Shown: positions 11,595 to 48,952 of the stretch, piece by piece | How positions within the stretch are numbered: the first letter of the stretch is position 1 | How the letters are laid out: every line of letters starts with the position of its first letter | Assembly: GCA_025361505.1 (NCBI GenBank) | Contig: JANYKZ010000103.1 | Location: 1-55,991, forward strand | Direction of reading: 5' to 3' | Origin: Coriobacteriia bacterium | GTDB taxonomy: Bacteria > Actinomycetota > Coriobacteriia > Anaerosomatales > PALSA-660 | Length of the DNA stretch: 55,991 nt | Translations under genes and position numbers: made by a program | The notes under the pieces: model-generated | The model's input: only the letters and a program-made list of their open reading frames with translations | Database searches by the model: none | Told to the model about the DNA's origin: nothing

Positions 11595-13853
11595 CTACTT
11601 GGGGATGTTGATGAACAGCGGAGCCAGGACGAGCGTGATCGTCGCGAGCAGCTTGATGAGCACGTGCAGGGACGGGCCGGCGGTGTCCTTGAACGGGTCG
11701 CCGACCGTGTCGCCTACGACGGCGGCCTTGTGCGTGTCGGAGCCCTTGCCGCCAGCGAAGCCCATCTCGATGTACTTCTTCGCGTTGTCCCACGCGCCGC
11801 CGCCGTTGTTGAGGAACAGCGCCATCAGCACACCGACGATCGTGCCGACCATGAGCATCGCAGCGACGGTCTCTCCACCGGCGTTGAACACGACGCGGAA
11901 GAGGACGCCGACGACGACGGGCATGCCGACCGCGAGCAGACCCGGAAGGACCATCTCGCGCAGCGCGGACTTGGTCACGAGGTCGACGGTGCGGCCGTAG
12001 TTCGGCTTGGAGGTGCCGGCGAGGATGCCCGCGTCCTCCTTGAACTGCGCACGCACGTCGGCGATGACCGCGGAGGCGGCCTTGCCGACCGCGCGGATGG
12101 CGAGCGAGGAGAACAGGAACACGAGCATGCCGCCGAGCAGTGCGCCGACGAACAGCTTCGGGTCGGCGATGTTGACGATGTACTGCGTCTTCACGCCGAC
12201 GGCCTGCGTCATGCCGTTCGCGGTCACGGTCTGCGTGCCGCCGATGACGCCGCCCAGGTTAAGGCCGTAGTTCTTGAGCTCGTCCAGGTAGGCCGAGAAG
12301 AGCAGGAACGCGGCGAGCGCGGCGGAACCGACCGCGTAGCCCTTCGTGAGGGCCTTGGTCGTGTTGCCGACCGAGTCGAGGCGGTCGGACTTCTCGCGGA
12401 CCTCAGCGGGCTGGCCGGACATCTCGATGATGCCGCCGGCGTTGTCCGCGATCGGGCCGAAGGTGTCCATCGCGAGCACGTAGCCGGCGGTGGACAGCAT
12501 GCCCATCGTGGCGACGGCGGTGCCGAACAGGCCCGCGTCCGGCAGGCCGGAGGACTGGCCCAGCGCGTAGGCGGCAAGGATCGCGACGCCGATGACGATG
12601 ACGGGCAGCGCGGTCGACTCCATGCCGACGGCGATGCCGGCGATGATGTTGGTCGCGGGGCCGGTCTTGGAGGCCTCGGCGATCGACATGACCGGGCGGT
12701 ACCGGAACTCGGTGTAGTACTGGGTGATGAACACGTAGAGCAGCGCCGTGATGATGCCGACGATGCCCGCCAGCAGGAAGTGCCACCAGGCGTCAGGGGC
12801 GGTCGTCGAGTAGAGCAGCCAGCGGCTGGCGATGGCCAGGCCGATGATGGCGAGGACCGTCGAGACGTAGAAGCCGCGGTTGAGCGACTTCATCGGGTCC
12901 TCGTCACCGCGGACCTTGACGATCAGCACGCCGATGATCGAGGCGACGATGCCGAACGAGCGCGCGACGAGCGGGAACAGCATGACGCCGACCACGCCCC
13001 ACGCGAAGTTGATGTTCGACTTGATGGCCAACGTCGCCATCGCGGCGCCGAGGATCATCGCGCCGATGTTCTCCGCGGCGGTCGACTCGAAGAGATCCGC
13101 GCCACGGCCGGCGCAGTCGCCGACGTTGTCGCCGACGAGGTCCGCGATGACGGCCGGGTTGCGGGGGTCGTCTTCGGGGATGCCGGCCTCGACCTTGCCG
13201 ACGAGGTCGGCTCCGACGTCCGCGGCCTTGGTGTAGATACCGCCGCCGAGCTGGGCGAAGAGTGCGACGAACGAGGCGCCGAAGCCGTAGCCGACGATCA
13301 GCAGCGGGGTCTTGGCCAGGTCCGCGACGGCGACGCCGCCGAAGTAGTGCGCCGCGGCGTAGAGCCCGCCGACGCCGATGAGCGACATCGCGACGACCAT
13401 CAGGCCGGAGACGGCGCCCGCGCGCAGCGCGACCTGGAGGCCGTCATTGACGCTGCGGAGCGTTCCCGCGGCGGTGCGGATGTTGGCGCGGATCGAGATC
13501 CACATGCCGACGTAGCCCGCGATCAGCGAGCACAGCGCGCCGAGCAGGAACGACAGGGTGGTCCAGAACGCCATCGACAGCGCGTTGTTGGCCACCGGGT
13601 CGAAGGCCTGGCCCCCGCGGAGCAGATAGCCGCCGAACAGCACGACGGCGAAGCCCACCGCCAGGTAGATGATCGTCTTGAACTGCCGGGCCATGAAGGC
13701 CTCGGCGCCCTCTTTGATGGCATCCGAGATCAGGCGCATCTTGTCGGTGCCGGTATCCCGCTTCAGAACCCACCTTGCGAGCAGCCAGGCCGTGACAAGG
13801 CCCAGGATGCCGAATGCAAGGATCAGTACGAGCAGGATCTCCTGCTGTCCCAT
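11595..13853 (-). CDS. hppA: membrane-bound proton-translocating pyrophosphatase (K+-independent type signature)
   Basis: 752-aa polytopic ORF with [27 protein letters not shown] and [10 protein letters not shown]. The Lys and Thr in the GNTT(A/K)A.(G/T)KG motif are the established K+-independent signature. Confidence 0.95.
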
Positions 13854-28077: not shown

Positions 28078-30078
28078 CTAGGGTGTCGGGGGCACCGGAG
28101 GCATCTGCGGCACAGGCGGCATCGGAGGCTGCGGAACTTCGGGTTCGACCGGAGTCTCAGCGGCCTCGGTCTTCTTGCCGCGCTTGCGCTCGGGCTTCGG
28201 CTCTCCCGCCGCCACGGCCGCCGCGTCAGCGATCGCCTCGGCAGCGAGGTACTCGTCCCAGTGGTCGCCCAGCAGCGCCTCGACCTCGTCCTTGTCGAGC
28301 GTCTCGCGGTCGATCAGCGCCTGCGCCATCAGGTCGAGCTGGGGGCGGCGTTCCCCGAGGATGGTCTTCGCGCGCTCGAAGGCGCCGTCGATGAGGCTGC
28401 GGACCTCCTTGTCGATCTCGAACGCGATCTCCTGGGAGTAGTCCGGCGTGGCTCCGAAGTCGCGACCGAGGAAGACCTCATGCTGCGGCTCGCCGAGCGT
28501 CATCGGACCCAGCTTGTCGGACATGCCGTACTGGGTGACCATCGCGCGCGCCAGCTTCGTCGCGCGCTCGATGTCGTTGCTCGCACCCGTCGTGACGTCG
28601 CCCAACGCCAGCTCCTCAGCGACACGCCCGCCGAGCAGGGAAGCGAGGTCGTCGAGCATCGACTTCTTCGAGCCGAGGAACTTCTCCTCCTCGGGGAGGT
28701 GCCACGTGCTGCCGAGCGAACGGCCGCGCGGGATGATCGTCACCTTGTGGACGATGTCGGTCCCGGGGAGCGCGAAGCCGACGATGGCGTGACCGGACTC
28801 GTGGTAGGCGATGACCTTCTTCTCGTCGTCGGAGATGAGGCGGCTGCGGCGCTCGGGGCCGGCGACCACGCGGTCGATGGCCTCCTCGAGCTCGACCATC
28901 TCGATCTGCTTGCGCCCGTGGCGCGCCGAGAGCAGAGCGGCCTCGTTGACGAGGTTCGCGAGATCGGCGCCCGTGAAGCCCGGCGTCCGCCGCGCGAGAA
29001 CCTCGACGTCGATGTCGGAGTTGATCGGCTTGCCCTTGATGTGGACCTTGAGGATGGCGATGCGGCCCTTGAGGTCGGGCCGGTCCACGACGACCTGGCG
29101 GTCGAAGCGGCCAGGGCGAAGCAGCGCCGGATCGAGGATGTCGGGACGGTTGGTGGCCGCGATCAGGATCACGTTGTCCTTGATGTCGAAGCCGTCCATC
29201 TCGACGAGCAGCTGGTTGAGCGTCTGCTCGCGCTCGTCGTGCCCGCCGCCGAGACCCGCGCCGCGGTGACGTCCGACGGCGTCGATCTCGTCCACGAACA
29301 CGATGCACGGGCTGGCCGCCTTGGCCTGCTCGAAGAGGTCACGCACGCGGCTCGCACCGACGCCGACGAACATCTCGACGAAGTCCGAGCCGGAGATCGA
29401 GAAGAACGGCACGCCGGCCTCACCGGCCACGGCCCGTGCGAGCAGCGTCTTGCCGGTGCCCGGAGGGCCGACGAGCAGCACACCCTTCGGGATCTTGGCG
29501 CCGAGTGCCTGGAACTTGCCCGGGTTCTCGAGGAACTCCTTGATCTCCTGGAGCTCCTCCACCGCCTCGTCCACACCCGCGACGTCCTTGAACGTCACGC
29601 GCGGCTGGTCGCGGGTCATGCGCTTGGCCTTGGCCTTCCCGAAGGACATGACCTTGCTGTTGCCGCCCTGCATCGAGTTCATGAAGAAGAGCATCACGCC
29701 GACGATCAGCAGGATGGGCAGGAACTGAAGGGCGAGCGCGAGCCACTCGTTGGGTTTCTGTGGATCGACGTTGAAGATCGTGGGGTTCGCGGCGACGAGC
29801 GCCGCCATCGAGTCCGAGCCCACGAAGTTCGCCGTGAACTGGGCGACGTTCTTCTTCGCCGCCAGGTCGGCGGCGGTCTTGTAGTAGGTGCCCTCGATGG
29901 TCTGGTCGCCTAGCTTGATGGTCGCCTGGACCACCTGGCTGGCTTCCAGCGCCCGATAGAACTGGCCCGTGGTGAGCTGGTCCGGGGCCTTGGCCGGGTT
30001 CGTGTACGTCGATACGACGTAGGCGACCGCCGCCAGGATCAGCAGATACAGCGCGACGGTGCGGACATTGCGATTCAA
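28078..30078 (-). CDS. ftsH: ATP-dependent zinc metalloprotease FtsH
   Basis: 666 aa with Walker A ([11 protein letters not shown]), the SRH region and the zinc site HESGHAIV. It has a proline-rich C-terminal tail: [24 protein letters not shown]. Confidence 0.97.
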
Positions 30079-39150: not shown

Positions 39151-40422
39151 GTGGAATCCGTCGACCCGCTCCTGCTCGATCCCCGGCACCCGAGACGCGT
39201 CGTAGTGGTGGGTGGAGGCTACGCGGGCCTGACCTTCGCCGTGACGCTGGCGAACAGGATGCGCGCGACCGACGGCATCGAGATCGTGCTCGTCGACCCG
39301 CGTCCCTATCAGCAGGCGCTCTCGGAACTCGACCTGGTGGCGGCCGGTACGGCACGGCCGCAGTTCGCCGAGCTGTGGTACGCCGACGTCCTGCGCGGCC
39401 TGCCCATCAAGGTGGTGCACGACCGGCTCGAGCAGGTCCTCCCCGACCTCAACGTCATCCGGGTCGGGCCGCGCGGCGAGTCCGGGACGACCATCCCCTA
39501 CTGGCGGCTCGTGATCGCCACGGGTGCGATCCCCACGATCCCGCCGGTGCCCGGCCTCGCCGACCGCGCCATCACGATGTGGTCGGTCGACGACGCGCTG
39601 AAGCTCCAGCACGCGATAGAGGCCCAGTTCCGGTACGCGGTGACGCTGACCGACCCTGCAGCCCTCCGCCGCGCCCTGGCCGTGACGGTGGTCGGGGGAG
39701 GCGCGACCGGCGTCGAGATCATCGGCACCATCGCGAAGCGACTCCCTCCGATGATCCGGCGCGCCGGCCACGATCCCTCCGAGCTGACGATGACGCTGAT
39801 CGAGGCACGGCCCGACATCCTGTACGACCTCCCGGAGGTCCAGCGGGAACGTGCGCGCAAGCGCCTCGAGAAGCTGGGTGTCCGCCTGCAACTCGGCCGG
39901 AAGCTCGTCGCGGTCGACGAGACCACGGCCCACCTCGAGGGCGGGGTCGACGTGCCCTCGCCCGTGCTCGTGTGGTGCGGCGGCGCGCACGCCGATCCCG
40001 ACGCGATCTCCTGGCAGCTGATGTGCGACGTCTCGGGGCGCTTGGTGTGCGACCCCACGCTGAAAGCGACCGGCACCGACGCGATCTACGCGGTCGGCGA
40101 CGTCGCGGCGTTCCGCGACCCCAAGGACTCGCGCGTGCTGCCGATGCTGGCGCAGTTCGCCATCCGCGAGGCCGAGCACGCCGCCGACTCCGTGCTGGGC
40201 GAGGCCCGCGGTGTCGCACCCAAGCCGTTCGTCCCCAACATGCACGGCGAGTTCGTGAGCGTCGGACCCGGCTGGGGCGTCGGCTGGATGTTCGGGATCA
40301 ACGTCTCGGGCTGGTTCGCGATCGTCATGAAGCGGATCACCTACATCATGTACTGGATCCAAGTGGGCTCGTTCCGGCTGGCATGGAAGCGCACGGTGCA
40401 GATGCTGCGGCTGCGGCGGTAG
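39151..40422 (+). CDS. ndh: type II NADH dehydrogenase-like FAD-dependent oxidoreductase
   Basis: 423 aa with two dinucleotide folds (VVVGGGYAGL and VVGGGATGVE) and AVGDVAA. The C-terminus is an amphipathic/hydrophobic anchor. Confidence 0.85.
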   Translation: MESVDPLLLDPRHPRRVVVVGGGYAGLTFAVTLANRMRATDGIEIVLVDPRPYQQALSELDLVAAGTARPQFAELWYADVLRGLPIKVVHDRLEQVLPDLNVIRVGPRGESGTTIPYWRLVIATGAIPTIPPVPGLADRAITMWSVDDALKLQHAIEAQFRYAVTLTDPAALRRALAVTVVGGGATGVEIIGTIAKRLPPMIRRAGHDPSELTMTLIEARPDILYDLPEVQRERARKRLEKLGVRLQLGRKLVAVDETTAHLEGGVDVPSPVLVWCGGAHADPDAISWQLMCDVSGRLVCDPTLKATGTDAIYAVGDVAAFRDPKDSRVLPMLAQFAIREAEHAADSVLGEARGVAPKPFVPNMHGEFVSVGPGWGVGWMFGINVSGWFAIVMKRITYIMYWIQVGSFRLAWKRTVQMLRLRR

Positions 40423-46070: not shown

Positions 46071-46487
46071 TCAGATGTAGTACATGGGCGCCACCTGCGC
46101 GTCGAGCTCGCGCTGCCGCTCGGCCAGCGCGGCCAGCGTCGTATCGTCGAGCGCGAGTTCGAGGGAGGCCGACGCAGCCTCCCACATCTCGGACACGGCC
46201 GAGCCGGTCACGTGGGGCACGTCGAGCACGATGCGCTGCACCGCCCTCACGACCTCCGCCACCGTGACCTCGTTGGCCGGGCGCAGGAGCGCGCACCCGC
46301 CGCCCGCACCGCGGCGGCAGTCGACGATACCGGCCCGGGCCAACCCCGTGAACTGCTGCTCCACGAAGCGCCGAGGCAGGCCGAGGCCGTCCGCTATCTC
46401 ACCGGCCGCGATGTAGACGCCGGCGGGCTGCTGGGCCAGCGCGGTCAGGGCGCGGATCGCGTAGTCGAGGCGCTGCGAGACTCTCAC
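46071..46487 (-). CDS. Rrf2 family transcriptional regulator (CymR/IscR-like)
   Basis: VRVSQRLDYAIRALTALAQQPAGVYIAAGEIADGLGLPRRFVEQQFTGLARAGIVDCRRGAGGGCALL is a typical Rrf2 winged HTH. The GTG start overlaps the cysK stop (GTGA). No three-Cys cluster motif is evident. Confidence 0.85.
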   Translation of the reverse strand: MRVSQRLDYAIRALTALAQQPAGVYIAAGEIADGLGLPRRFVEQQFTGLARAGIVDCRRGAGGGCALLRPANEVTVAEVVRAVQRIVLDVPHVTGSAVSEMWEAASASLELALDDTTLAALAERQRELDAQVAPMYYI

Positions 46488-47443
46488 TCGCCGTATCCCT
46501 CCCACAGCGGGGTCGAAAGGTAGCGCTCGCCGGTCGAGGGTGCGACGGTGACGACGACCTTGCCGGCCGCTTCGGGTCGCGCGGCGAGCCGCAGAGCGGC
46601 CACGACGTTGGCGCCCGAGGAGATGCCCACGAAGACGCCCTCCTCGGCAGCGAGGCGGCGGGCCATCGCGATCGCTGCGGCGCTGTCCACGTGCTCGACC
46701 TCGTCGAGGACGTCCAGCGAGAGCGTCGCGGGGATGAAGTTCGCTCCGATGCCCTGGATCCCGTGGGGGCCGGGCGTGAGAGGCTCTCCCGCGATCCGCT
46801 GCGAGATGATGGGCGACTCGGTCGGCTCGACCGCGACCGCCAGGGAGCCGGGACGGGCCTCCTTGAGGAAACGCCCGCCGCCGCTGATCGTCCCGCCCGT
46901 GCCGACTCCGGCCACGAAGGCGTAGAGCTCCTCGTCGCCGAGGGCCTGGTCGATCTCGGGACCGGTGGTGGCGTAGTGGGCCGCGGGGTTCGCGGGGTTG
47001 TCGAACTGACCGGGGATGAACGCGCCCTCGATGCCGGCGGCCACCTCGCGGGCCTTTTCGACGGCGCCCTTCATCCCCAGTGCCCGGTCGGTCAGGACGA
47101 GCTCGGCGCCATACGCCGCGAAGACCTTCCGGCGCTCGAGGGAGAACGACTCGGGCATCACCAAGACCACGCGGTAGCCGCGCGCTGCACCGACAAGGGC
47201 CAGCGCGATGCCGGTGTTGCCGCTGGTGGGTTCGACGATGACAGACGTGCCGGCAGCGATGAGGCCGCGGGCCTCGGCGTCCTCGATCATGGCAAGACCG
47301 ATGCGGTCCTTGACCGATCCACCGGGGTTGCGCGACTCCAGCTTGATGTAGACGCGGCCGGGGAGTCCCGCGCCCAGCTTGTCGAGTCGGACGAGGGGCG
47401 TCGAGCCGATGGTATCGACCACGCCGGGGATGGTGTCAGTCAT
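46484..47443 (-). CDS. cysK: cysteine synthase A (O-acetylserine sulfhydrylase)
   Basis: Start at Met25 of the track ORF (GGAGG 6 nt upstream), giving 319 aa. It has the PLP lysine motif NPGGSVKDRIG and TSGNTGIALA. Confidence 0.93.
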   Translation of the reverse strand: MTDTIPGVVDTIGSTPLVRLDKLGAGLPGRVYIKLESRNPGGSVKDRIGLAMIEDAEARGLIAAGTSVIVEPTSGNTGIALALVGAARGYRVVLVMPESFSLERRKVFAAYGAELVLTDRALGMKGAVEKAREVAAGIEGAFIPGQFDNPANPAAHYATTGPEIDQALGDEELYAFVAGVGTGGTISGGGRFLKEARPGSLAVAVEPTESPIISQRIAGEPLTPGPHGIQGIGANFIPATLSLDVLDEVEHVDSAAAIAMARRLAAEEGVFVGISSGANVVAALRLAARPEAAGKVVVTVAPSTGERYLSTPLWEGYGE

Positions 47444-47582
47444 TGTGGACCTCCGTTGTGATGCGAGCGTGTGGAGCCTCAGCACGAATGTACCCGCGCG
47501 GCGGTGCCGGCACAACGGGAATCAGCGCACCATAGTTATGCGCTTCATGCGGTTCGGCACGATCCGAACCCGGCGCTGAGGG

Positions 47583-47897
47583 ATGCGGTACGCTTCCGCG
47601 GACGGGTCGTCGACGAGGGGACGCACGGTGCGGGTGTGGTTCTGGGCGTGGGTGATCGTGGCCGTCGGCATCGCAGCCGCGAGTGCCGCCGCGCGCGACC
47701 GCGCCTCCGCGCCCTTCGCGGTCGGGGCGATCGGCGCCGCGGCGCTCGAGGCCCTGGGGGGCACACCCGCGGCCGAGTGGCTCGTCTTCGCCGGTGTCTC
47801 GAGCGCGGTGTTCGTCGCGCTCAACCGCCGGCGTCATCGCCGGCGTCACGGCTGGACCGGAAGCGGGCGCCACAGCGTCGGCCGGGCGCAGGACTGA
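47583..47897 (+). CDS. hypothetical small membrane protein
   Basis: 104-aa ORF with high GC3 bias and two or three hydrophobic segments (WFWAWVIVAVGIAAASAAA, AAEWLVFAGVSSAVFVAL). The C-terminus is basic. No recognisable family, and the start is uncertain. Confidence 0.4.
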   Translation: MRYASADGSSTRGRTVRVWFWAWVIVAVGIAAASAAARDRASAPFAVGAIGAAALEALGGTPAAEWLVFAGVSSAVFVALNRRRHRRRHGWTGSGRHSVGRAQD

Positions 47898-47905
47898 CGC
47901 GCGCG

Positions 47906-48565
47906 CTAGACCTCGACGGTGATGAAGACCTCGCCGTCGCGCACGACGACCGGGTAGGTGCGGACGACGGAGTCCGGATGATCCGTACTCCCGTCGCGCA
48001 CGTCGTACCTCCAGCCGTGCCACGGGCAGGCCAGGTGGTATCCCTCCATGAATCCTTGCGACAACGGCCCGAAGGCGTGCCTGCAGAGATCGGACAGCGC
48101 GAAGAACTCACCGGCTGCCCGGACGAGGGCGATGTCGCGCTTGCCGATCTTCACGTGGCGCGCCTGGCCGTCGACCAGATCGCCGACCGCCGCAACGCGC
48201 ACGTCCACCGGGCCCGATGTCTCCTCGATGACCCCCTCGAGCGACGAACCGTCCTCGACGTCGGTCCGGATGAAGAGCCCGCACCAGCACTTGCGCAGAG
48301 CGGCGAACTCGTCGAGGTGGAACGGGATGCACGGACAGATGATGGCCACATCGGCCTTCGGGTCGCCGGTCCGTATGCGGCACGGGCAGTAGACGTCGCC
48401 CGTCTCGGCGAGGATCTCGAGTTCCGACGAGAGCACCGCGTCGACGAACCCGGAATCGGTGTTCAGCCGGTAGCCGAGGCGCGCCACGAACGGCACCATG
48501 AACTCCTTGAGATCGTCCTCGGTGGTGCCGGCGAAGAACCGTCGCCGCACGGGTGCGTCGCTCAC
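47906..48565 (-). CDS. fusion protein: ferredoxin:thioredoxin reductase catalytic-subunit-like domain + Rieske [2Fe-2S] ferredoxin domain
   Basis: GTG at 48565, preceded by GAGAGGGAAA, giving 219 aa. N-terminal half: FMVPFVARLGYRLNTDSGFVDAVLSSELEILAETGDVYCPCRIRTGDPKADVAIICPCIPFHLDEFAALRKCWCGLF, which has the six-Cys CPC/CPC/CxC FTR pattern. C-terminal half: FFALSDLCRHAFGPLSQGFMEGYHLACPWHGWRYDVRDG, which has the Rieske motif CxH...CxxH. The upstream part of track ORF 47906..48922 is an Arg-rich artefact. Confidence 0.8.
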   Translation of the reverse strand: MSDAPVRRRFFAGTTEDDLKEFMVPFVARLGYRLNTDSGFVDAVLSSELEILAETGDVYCPCRIRTGDPKADVAIICPCIPFHLDEFAALRKCWCGLFIRTDVEDGSSLEGVIEETSGPVDVRVAAVGDLVDGQARHVKIGKRDIALVRAAGEFFALSDLCRHAFGPLSQGFMEGYHLACPWHGWRYDVRDGSTDHPDSVVRTYPVVVRDGEVFITVEV

Positions 48566-48603
48566 GTGGGGTTTCCCTCTCGTCGGGGTCGGGGCTGCCT
48601 CGT

Positions 48604-48852
48604 TCAGAGACCGATGAGCTGCTGGATCCGGGCCTTGTTGTAGCCGACGACGACCTCGTCGCCCACCACGATCACGGGGAACGAGGTGCCGTTGGACAGG
48701 CGCTTTACCTCGTCGATCGCGTCGGTGCGCTCCTGGCCTGCGAGCTTGTCGACTTCGACGACATCGTAGACGACGCCGCTGTCGTCCAGGAACGTGCGTG
48801 CCTGCCGGCAGTACGGGCAGGTCGAGAGCGCGAATACCTTGATCTGCGGCAA
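48604..48852 (-). CDS. glutaredoxin-like / NrdH-like small thioredoxin-fold protein (CPYC)
   Basis: 82 aa: LPQIKVFALSTCPYCRQARTFLDDSGVVYDVVEVD...SFPVIVVGDEVVVGYNKARIQQL. TTG start at 48852, preceded by GAGAGGAG. The rest of track ORF 48604..49428 is an artefact that overlaps the divergent gene. Confidence 0.75.
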   Translation of the reverse strand: MPQIKVFALSTCPYCRQARTFLDDSGVVYDVVEVDKLAGQERTDAIDEVKRLSNGTSFPVIVVGDEVVVGYNKARIQQLIGL

Positions 48853-48952
48853 CTCGGACTCCTCTCGGGGGAGACGGCGCGGCGCTCCGCGCCGTCGTGC
48901 GTTGTGGTGTATGTTCCCCCACGACACGGCATCTCGGTCACAGGGAGAGCAG

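Follow-up and report, generated by a model that had tools for sequence, protein, structure and literature searches.

Ferredoxin:thioredoxin reductase (FTR) and ferredoxin:disulfide reductase (FDR) are, to our knowledge, the only disulfide reductases that use an iron-sulfur (Fe-S) cluster rather than a flavin. Both are known to draw electrons from ferredoxin, in FDR via an attached rubredoxin, and all the characterised FTR and FDR enzymes of which we know work reductively. The catalytic subunit of plant and cyanobacterial FTR (FTRc) forms a heterodimer with a variable subunit, takes free plant-type ferredoxin as its donor and has thioredoxins as substrates. The rubredoxin-fused FDR of Methanosarcina acetivorans, the protein of PDB entry 4tpu (deposited under the name 'Rubredoxin'), is said to have been characterised biochemically by Kumar in 2015; reportedly, in the work of Prakash of 2018, it performs the ferredoxin-dependent reduction of Trx5 and of a glutaredoxin-like methanoredoxin and carries a tyrosine in the position of the FTR histidine, and in that of Wei of 2015 FDR and an NrdH-like protein are said to form a pair that feeds class III ribonucleotide reductase. 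A classification of the FTR and FDR enzymes is given in PMC7278568. We analysed a two-gene locus in a stretch of 55,991 nucleotides, hereafter the window (GC content 68.8%), which is the contig JANYKZ010000103.1 of the assembly GCA_025361505.1 of a Coriobacteriia bacterium. A gene for a glutaredoxin (Grx)-like protein, grx, is followed there by a gene, hereafter the fusion gene, whose product joins an FTR-like catalytic domain to a Rieske domain. The two genes probably form a self-contained operon for an Fe-S disulfide-reductase system of the FTR/FDR kind, in which the Rieske domain would relay electrons towards the reduction of the Grx-like protein. The kind of enzyme, a cluster-dependent disulfide reductase of the FTR/FDR type with a small redoxin, is known; its Rieske partner, whether fused or encoded in the four-gene cassette described below, is undescribed in the sources searched.

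The layout that a preliminary description of the locus had read from the bare sequence was recovered: two genes on the minus strand with non-ATG starts (TTG and GTG, respectively), a gap of 38 nt between them and a GAGAGG-type ribosome-binding site (RBS) ahead of each (Table 1). Its proposal of an FTR catalytic domain followed by a Rieske domain was likewise upheld by the Pfam search, in which the first domain matched PF02943 with 59.1 bits (cut-off 22 bits) and residues 122–197 matched PF00355 with 65 bits (E = 5e-18, cut-off 20.3 bits). Against NCBIfam the fusion protein scored under every cut-off, the nearest models being those of dioxygenase Rieske ferredoxins, of NirD and of an 'FtrB double-selenoprotein'.

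Within the catalytic domain the six cysteines and W94 are invariant across the 22 aligned homologues of the fusion protein, and the motif KC-W-CG around C93-W94-C95 is found in 80 out of 80 related loci. These are Coriobacteriia-type loci fetched out of the 182 species-level GTDB genomes that encode a relative of the fusion, the species scan taking one genome per species. From the alignment to 2pvd and 4tpu, together with published FTR structures, C60, C77, C79 and C93 would ligate a [4Fe-4S] cluster and C62 and C95 would form the redox-active disulfide. Among solved proteins, those of FDR type are nearer to the domain than the FTRc of plants or cyanobacteria; phmmer against the PDB gave 7pwe (E = 8e-8) and 4tpu (2e-7) ahead of 2pvd (1.6e-3), with 2pvd/7bzk at about 2e-3. 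The FTRc structures (1dj7, 2pvd and 7bzk) have the family PF02943 and the logic of six cysteines in common with the window domain, and presumably the same cluster-assisted disulfide chemistry; they are distant, however (E about 2e-3), with the pattern CPC-x16-CPC-x8-CHC and a catalytic histidine, whereas the two spacers are x14/x13 in the window and x14/x12 in FDR, and tryptophan stands in place of that histidine in all the 80 related loci. The likeness to FDR concerns the [4Fe-4S]/disulfide catalytic domain with its identical first spacer, an aromatic residue instead of histidine in the last CxC (Tyr in FDR, Trp in the window) and a one-electron metal centre attached C-terminally past a short linker. 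That centre is a rubredoxin in FDR and a Rieske [2Fe-2S] domain of about 100 residues in the window and, unlike FDR, the subgroup of the window is linked to Rieske proteins across phyla.

Both window proteins have a counterpart in the single 196-residue chain of 7pwe ('Ferredoxin-thioredoxin reductase subunit B'), of which residues 6–84 of chain A match the Grx-like protein (E = 1.4e-10) and residues 83–178 the FTR-like domain (E = 8e-8). It differs from the window in having Grx rather than Rieske as fusion partner, in its C-Y-C motif and in the absence of a Rieske domain; the literature search found no paper on this entry. The C-W-C motif, compared with the CHC of FTR, had suggested an altered chemistry to the preliminary description. 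This argument is weak: an exhaustive HMMER search with the N-terminal domain yielded only 247 representatives, and in the best 150 of them the middle residue of the last CxC is His in 38, Trp in 28, Tyr in 21, Phe in 11 and Leu in 10, others making up the rest, while 4tpu and 7pwe carry Tyr where FTRc has the catalytic histidine. Since this residue varies so widely among FTR-like proteins, tryptophan marks a subgroup rather than a unique departure.

FTR-like domains are also promiscuous fusion partners. Rubredoxin-like domains are attached C-terminally in P0211, P0212, P0262 and P0269 and N-terminally in P0141 and P0168; Grx precedes the FTR-like domain in P0130 and P0204 and follows it in P0201, Trx precedes it in P0172, and CoA-binding, cNMP-binding and SLOG-type domains occur as further partners. 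The Rieske domain of the window begins about 16 residues past the end of the catalytic domain, which is the position of the rubredoxin in the C-terminal fusions. A second CWC subgroup was noted among these relatives (P0141, P0152, P0162, P0168, P0179, P0193 and P0215), with the signature LLCPCNF...CWCGLFVKK and a chain that ends just after the motif; many of its members begin with a single or double rubredoxin-like domain. Each subgroup thus has its own accessory one-electron centre, be it a Rieske domain, an N-terminal rubredoxin or a C-terminal rubredoxin.

The four ligands of the Rieske centre are invariant in the 22 homologues, as is the stretch WHGWRYDVRDG-x-TDHP from the H183 motif on, and CxH-x16-CxxH is present in 80 out of 80 related loci. 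The additional cysteine pair of the bc1/b6f type is absent, the motifs reading CRHAFG and CPWH instead of CxHxGC and CxCH. In sequence searches of the PDB the best matches are the dioxygenase Rieske ferredoxins NahAb (2qpz), CarAc (1vck) and BphF (1fqt), with E around 1e-12 and 26–32% identity, and the closest NCBIfam models (HcaC, AndAb and NirD) each stay below their cut-offs. An AlphaFold2 (AF2) model of the 219-residue protein, built on the alignment of 22 sequences, has predicted local distance difference test (pLDDT) values of 83–95 over most of the Rieske domain (66 over residues 161–170), and Foldseek aligned the modelled domain to 1vck, 2qpz, 1fqt and 2e4q with template modelling (TM) scores of 0.66–0.79. 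Sequence and predicted fold thus both place it in the class of Rieske-type ferredoxins. The dioxygenase ferredoxins have the same fold and CxH-x15-17-CxxH pattern, and no bc1-type disulfide; they are, however, free electron carriers that shuttle between NAD(P)H reductases and oxygenases, whereas in the window the domain shares its chain with a disulfide reductase, in a lineage of anaerobes, and no oxygenase gene was found in the neighbourhood of the module. Ferredoxin-type Rieske centres form the low-potential class, at about -150 mV, far under the bc1 Rieske proteins. The argument of the preliminary description, that a high-potential Rieske centre might call for another donor or for thiol oxidation, is weakened by this class assignment, and also by the fact that the relay of FDR is already a rubredoxin.

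The protein encoded upstream, with 82 residues, matches PF00462 (Glutaredoxin; E = 6e-15) and has a CPYC active site on a thioredoxin fold. All the Grx models of NCBIfam stay below cut-off for it, the best being a YruB-type Grx-like family (56 bits against 88.6); it is not a member of the curated Grx equivalogs (Grx1/2/3 models, used as a proxy for glutathione-binding motifs), and it reads VVGYN at the C-terminal 'GG-x-DD' region, which is a motif of classical glutathione-dependent glutaredoxin. Its closest solved structures are the archaeal Grx-like proteins 3ic4, 3nzn and 5cax, together with the Grx half of 7pwe. The partners of FDR are small Grx-like or NrdH-like redoxins, and the window protein resembles those of the Methanosarcina type (3nzn and 5cax). 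As the preliminary description had asked whether grx is kept beside the orthologues, it is worth stating that in 79 out of 80 related loci the fusion gene has grx as its immediate upstream neighbour on the same strand, the 80th ending at a contig edge; CPYC is kept in 76 of these 79 neighbours, and the GAGAGGAG element also precedes grx in close relatives. The gap between the two genes does not exceed 19 nt in 72 of the 79 loci, and 31 loci show an overlap, of 4 nt in 21 cases, 1 nt in 8 and 7–8 nt in 2; short and overlapping spacers suggest translational coupling of the two genes. This linkage and the existence of Grx-FTR fusion proteins support a partnership between grx and the reductase, the Grx-like protein being the predicted disulfide substrate.

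The fusion is neither a chance event nor an artefact of assembly. An identical 219-residue protein was assembled independently from three sequencing runs; both domains are present in all of the best 120 database clusters (67–100% identical, mostly 212–235 residues, with only generic names), and a single uninterrupted open reading frame (ORF) is found in more than 120 clusters of different sources as well as in 80 out of 80 species genomes. A homologue of only 50% identity to the window fusion (P0123, locus L091) has the same architecture and likewise a grx gene upstream, and CWC and the Rieske ligands are kept in every fusion checked (80 loci and 121 database proteins). A frameshift or an assembly error that joined two separate genes might be suspected from some stand-alone relatives in long-read assemblies (P0133, P0134, P0161 and L095), which look frameshifted into a downstream Rieske gene; the agreement of three independent runs, of more than 120 clusters and all the 80 genomes, and of the divergent homologue leaves this explanation with next to no probability for the window. 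The long-read or metagenome sequences in question (P0133, P0134, P0161 and L095:1410-2117) run into downstream Rieske fragments and look like chimeras rather than true fusions. The 80 fetched genomes are metagenome-assembled genomes (MAGs), most of them under the names Coriobacteriia, Anaerosomatales, Actinomycetota or Actinobacteria; about 10 bear the deposit name 'uncultured Eubacteriales' and two have another genus name, and an additional record is named Coriobacteriaceae bacterium EMTCatB1. Relatives of the fusion, whose taxonomic spread the preliminary description had asked for, thus occur in 182 species genomes, those fetched being named as Coriobacteriia or close relatives. Its impression that the architecture had not been described agrees with what was found: no curated family for the fusion was found in NCBIfam, no solved structure of it or of any CWC-type member in the PDB, and the literature search retrieved no paper that treats the cassette or a fusion of Rieske and FTR, a passing mention in Balsera 2013, Wei 2015 or Prakash 2018 being possible.

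Outside Coriobacteriia, the nearest relatives of the catalytic domain share the signature CPC-x14-(I/V)CPCIPFH...CWCGL(F/Y)(I/V) and belong to a cassette of four separate genes on one strand in the order Rieske(A)-Grx-FTR-like(CWC)-Rieske(B). In P0274, a stand-alone FTR-like protein of 115 residues, the operon encodes a Rieske protein (98 residues), a Grx (81 residues), the FTR-like protein and a second Rieske protein (126 residues), the genes overlapping or nearly abutting; the Grx-FTR-like fusion P0130 has a Rieske gene on either side. Among a separate set of 80 metagenome loci (L096-L175), fetched from more than 508 metagenome relatives and mapped for the modules by tblastn, the complete order was found in 68; of the remaining 12, most are truncated by the edge of their contig, while in a few one module is missing from the tblastn map despite adjacent sequence. 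The cassette was confirmed by Pfam annotation in one Methanocella MAG and one Chloroflexi MAG, and the sources of the CWC FTR-like genes are named Methanocella, Bathyarchaeota, Promethearchaeota (Asgard), Chloroflexi, Omnitrophota and Thermodesulfobacteriota. The two Rieske proteins differ from each other: the upstream one has the bc1-like additional cysteine pair (CxHxxC...CxCH) in 43 out of 43, the downstream one in none of 52 and carries an insertion of about 25 residues.

The FTR-like protein of the cassette belongs to the same CWC subgroup as the window domain (37–46% identity) and is accompanied by a homologous Grx-like protein and by Rieske partners. The cassette has the gene order of grx and the fusion gene, and its FTR-like gene and the Rieske gene downstream of it together give a collinear alignment with the window protein, the difference being that the modules are separate and the Rieske proteins two in number. 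The Coriobacterial fusion would be a condensed derivative of this widespread four-gene cassette. Concerning the source of the fused Rieske domain, collinearity alone favours the downstream type, with the hidden Markov model (HMM) scores equal (63.5 against 63.0 bits for the two cassette types). An obligate genomic linkage of the three modules is observed in three fusion states, namely as separate genes, as Grx-FTR fusion and as FTR-Rieske fusion, and this is strong evidence from gene organisation that the Rieske, Grx-like and FTR-like proteins are dedicated partners acting together. In our view the wider cassette is a more significant lead than the fusion itself. In two loci (L092 and L093) a peroxiredoxin gene of the TGA (selenocysteine, Sec) type lies immediately upstream of the cassette. 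The one at L092:5056-5667 has an in-frame TGA at the peroxidatic cysteine (FFYPADFTFV*ATE) and had been split into two ORF calls (57 and 142 residues); as the TGA codon occupies the position of the active-site cysteine, these peroxiredoxins are presumably selenoproteins, and their adjacency hints at a target of Grx.

For the grx-fusion operon we propose that the Rieske centre would accept single electrons from an external donor, by analogy with FDR most likely a low-potential ferredoxin, with a flavoprotein as the alternative, and would hand them one by one to the [4Fe-4S]/C62-C95 site. Through thiol-disulfide exchange with the resulting dithiol, the Grx-like protein would then have its CPYC disulfide reduced, and the reduced Grx-like protein would in turn serve the reduction of cellular targets. 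Both the cluster content and the direction of electron flow are those that we infer, the latter being taken as reductive because of the homology to FDR, the precedent of a rubredoxin relay in FDR and the peroxiredoxin link in one relative. The preliminary description had seen in the covalently attached Rieske cluster a built-in site for electrons that would replace the soluble donor. Of this, the entry site is retained as the best reading; the replacement of a soluble donor is not, since a fused carrier still needs an external donor, and it is weakened further because the Rieske proteins of the relatives are separate members of the operon. As one possible rationale, the better oxygen tolerance of Rieske and rubredoxin centres, compared with low-potential [4Fe-4S] ferredoxins, might suit a reductase for stress defence.

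Several points weigh against such a reductive relay. The potential of ferredoxin-type Rieske centres exceeds that of ferredoxins and of most Trx and Grx couples; at about -150 mV the Rieske centre likely lies above the disulfide couples to be reduced, so that reductive flow would need an uphill step or a cluster of unusually low potential. Neither in the Coriobacterial neighbourhoods of the module nor in the cassette loci does a ferredoxin or reductase gene recur consistently. The cassette has two differing Rieske proteins, for whose separate roles the proposal offers no explanation, where the Coriobacterial version has one domain; a second Rieske gene was found neither in the window nor, over a range of 6 kb, in any of the 80 Coriobacterial loci. 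The stand-alone CWC-type genes P0127 and P0271, from AT-rich MAGs (27–31% GC; one named 'Candidatus Nanoa...'), have neither a Rieske nor a Grx neighbour. Finally, the AF2 model (mean pLDDT 73, predicted TM score 0.55) falls below a pLDDT of 50 over the cluster loops and gives no distance between the clusters.

The order of potentials would be satisfied if the same components worked in reverse, as a thiol:Rieske oxidoreductase in which electrons pass one at a time from the Grx dithiol to the Rieske centre and on to an acceptor, for instance a respiratory carrier or an enzyme of the oxidative-stress response. Such a flow would be downhill, from dithiol/disulfide couples at about -200 to -270 mV to a Rieske centre at about -150 mV, and it would agree with the cysteine pair of the upstream Rieske protein in 43 out of 43, which is typical of higher-potential Rieske proteins, and with a cassette to which no low-potential donor gene is consistently linked. 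We nevertheless hold reverse flow to be unlikely: the characterised FTR and FDR enzymes known to us are all reductive, FDR runs in this direction although its rubredoxin relay typically lies at a still higher potential than a Rieske ferredoxin, the peroxiredoxin beside the cassette in one relative consumes reducing power, and no gene for an acceptor is linked. It could also be imagined that the Rieske domain stands off the main electron path, shielding the [4Fe-4S] cluster as the variable subunit of FTR does or sensing redox state or oxygen, while ferredoxin docks on the catalytic domain. Its attachment where FDR bears its accessory domain, an AF2 model that does not fix the inter-domain geometry, and the absence of an FTR variable-subunit (FTRv) gene among the neighbours of the module in the window, L089 and L090 (neighbourhoods only, not genome-wide) are compatible with this; the strict conservation of four cluster ligands in 80 out of 80 genomes would be needless for a purely structural cap, and separate Rieske proteins conserved as operon partners in distant lineages fit diffusible or docking carriers better, and we give this role little probability.

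The preliminary description had seen in the neighbouring cysK and rrf2 genes a fit with a role in thiol/sulfur homeostasis. The module might then be a dedicated helper of sulfur assimilation that reduces, for instance, S-sulfocysteine or persulfide intermediates, rather than a general disulfide reductase. Indeed, cysK is found within 6 kb in 25 and rrf2 in 29 of the 80 related loci, and in 4 of 71 loci, as well as in the divergent locus L091 (CysK 56% identical), cysK is the next gene after the fusion gene, with the same orientation. Most loci, however, have no such linkage; a convergent gene, 47583-47897 (+), parts the module from cysK in the window, no cysK neighbour recurs beside the cassette in other phyla, and the shared region, which also holds a liv-type ABC transporter (about 40 of the 80 loci) and SPFH/NfeD genes, resembles inherited synteny. 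The neighbourhood argument is therefore weak, and a helper of this sort seems improbable. A broader proposal reaches beyond the locus itself: CWC-type FTR-like proteins might constitute a distinct and widespread class with obligate Rieske, not ferredoxin, partners, which we consider possible and rather doubtful. Were it true, the class, its Rieske centres being oxygen-tolerant and much higher in potential than ferredoxin, might link protein thiols to a pool of donors or acceptors near the level of NAD(P)H or quinol, or else might run oxidatively or split or merge electron pairs by means of its two Rieske proteins, one bc1-like and one ferredoxin-like; the Coriobacterial fusion would then be its simplest model in one polypeptide.

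With regard to the reductive relay, a conserved Rieske partner would represent a third solution for the entry of electrons into this kind of enzyme, fused in Coriobacteria and separate in the cassette, and would offer a role for the Rieske proteins of strict anaerobes that possess neither oxygenases nor bc complexes. A single-chain enzyme with a small substrate would moreover provide a compact system for the way in which one-electron carriers feed a two-electron disulfide reduction, for the role of the variable residue of the CxC motif and for the thiol redox balance of uncultured anaerobic Actinomycetota.

Table 1. Coordinates of the grx-fusion module, its leader and neighbouring genes in the window, with loci that carry the four-gene cassette
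Feature	Position	Strand	Details and basis
grx, glutaredoxin-like redoxin	48604..48852	-	82 residues, TTG start; translation and PF00462
CPYC active site of grx	48808-48819	-	C12-P-Y-C15
RBS of grx, GAGAGGAG	48859..48866	-	sequence; GAGAGG-type, 7-8 nt ahead of the start
Fusion gene (FTR-like domain, then Rieske domain)	47906..48565	-	219 residues and stop, GTG start
RBS of the fusion gene, GAGAGGGA	48574..48581	-	sequence; GAGAGG-type, 7-8 nt ahead of the start, within the 38-nt spacer
FTR/FDR-type catalytic domain, residues 19-106	48248..48511	-	PF02943 FeThRed_B, E = 5e-16
Six-cysteine motif, residues 60-95	48281..48388	-	C60-P-C62 x14 C77-P-C79 x13 C93-W-C95
Rieske [2Fe-2S] ferredoxin-type domain, residues 122-219	47909..48202	-	PF00355
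Rieske ligands	48017..48085	-	C161-R-H163 x16 C180-P-W-H183; sequence, alignment
Conserved element GGGGGAACATACACCACA, possible -10 region	48903..48920	-	kept in L001-L004 and L021; degenerate in others
GC-rich hairpin of the 5'-untranslated region, GACGGCGCG-GAGCGC-CGCGCCGTC	48873..48896	-	between the GGGGGAACATACACCACA element and the RBS
Small membrane ORF, convergent	47583-47897	+	between module and cysK; no Pfam match
cysK	46484-47515	-	paired with the rrf2-family regulator
rrf2-family regulator	46071-46505	-	overlaps the end of cysK by 22 nt
NDH-2-like flavoprotein gene (Pyr_redox_2)	39151-40422	+	8.5 kb from the module
Four-gene cassette, examples	L094:4454-5730; L092:5687-7016; L096-L175; L176:3356-4736; L177:3415-4724		

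Ahead of grx, the GGGGGAACATACACCACA element may serve as the -10 promoter region for grx and the fusion gene; scans for a sigma-70 consensus promoter and for terminators gave nothing usable. The 53-nt stretch 48853-48905 of the 5'-untranslated region, which includes the hairpin, folds at -23.8 kcal/mol (z = -2.0). Rfam had no match to the hairpin region, and relatives carry other GC-rich palindromes at this position. As a divergent ORF for a membrane protein upstream of grx and the convergent ORF downstream flank the module, and other neighbours are only loosely linked, grx and the fusion gene appear to be a stand-alone bicistronic unit.

Candidates for the electron donor were sought among the neighbouring genes. 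A homologue of the NDH-2-like flavoprotein lies divergently and directly upstream of grx in 26 of the 80 loci and within 10 kb in others; it was rejected as a general donor, being neither general nor operonic, and looks like inherited synteny. A polyferredoxin was likewise set aside, its gene being seen only in L089, where L089:8048-8896 (chromosome OY969691.1) encodes 282 residues with multiple Fer4 domains two genes upstream of grx; it is absent from the window. Beside the cassette, a flavoprotein of 698 residues with Fer2_4, Pyr_redox_2, Fer4 and BFD-like domains follows the downstream Rieske gene in L129:3721-6333, L109, L128, L134, L139 and L161, either directly or at a distance of as much as about 1.5 kb; in L129 it is itself followed by a DAO-type oxidoreductase. 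Present in only these 6 cassette loci, it was not retained as the donor, and is possibly a lineage-specific electron source. An FMN_red gene was dismissed, occurring in Methanocella only.

Homologues of the small convergent ORF downstream are found in 25 related loci, often beside a stomatin-like gene (SPFH, by sequence only) that is missing at this position in the window; the pairing suggests an NfeD-like protein, for which the family search gave no confirmation. The rrf2-family regulator contains only two cysteines (VDCRRGAGGGC) and not the C-terminal cluster motif of three, by which it resembles regulators of the CymR type, lacking an Fe-S cluster and being paired with CysK. In the rest of the window (1-45000), judged only from N-terminal sequences and ORF sizes, there appear to be Nuo/Mrp-like membrane subunits, a Tad-pilus-like cluster, a membrane pyrophosphatase-like ORF (11595-13853), an FtsH-like ORF (28078-30078) and ABC transporters of the glycine-betaine and Liv types. 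The locus nearest to the window comes from a peat ('palsa') Coriobacteriia MAG.

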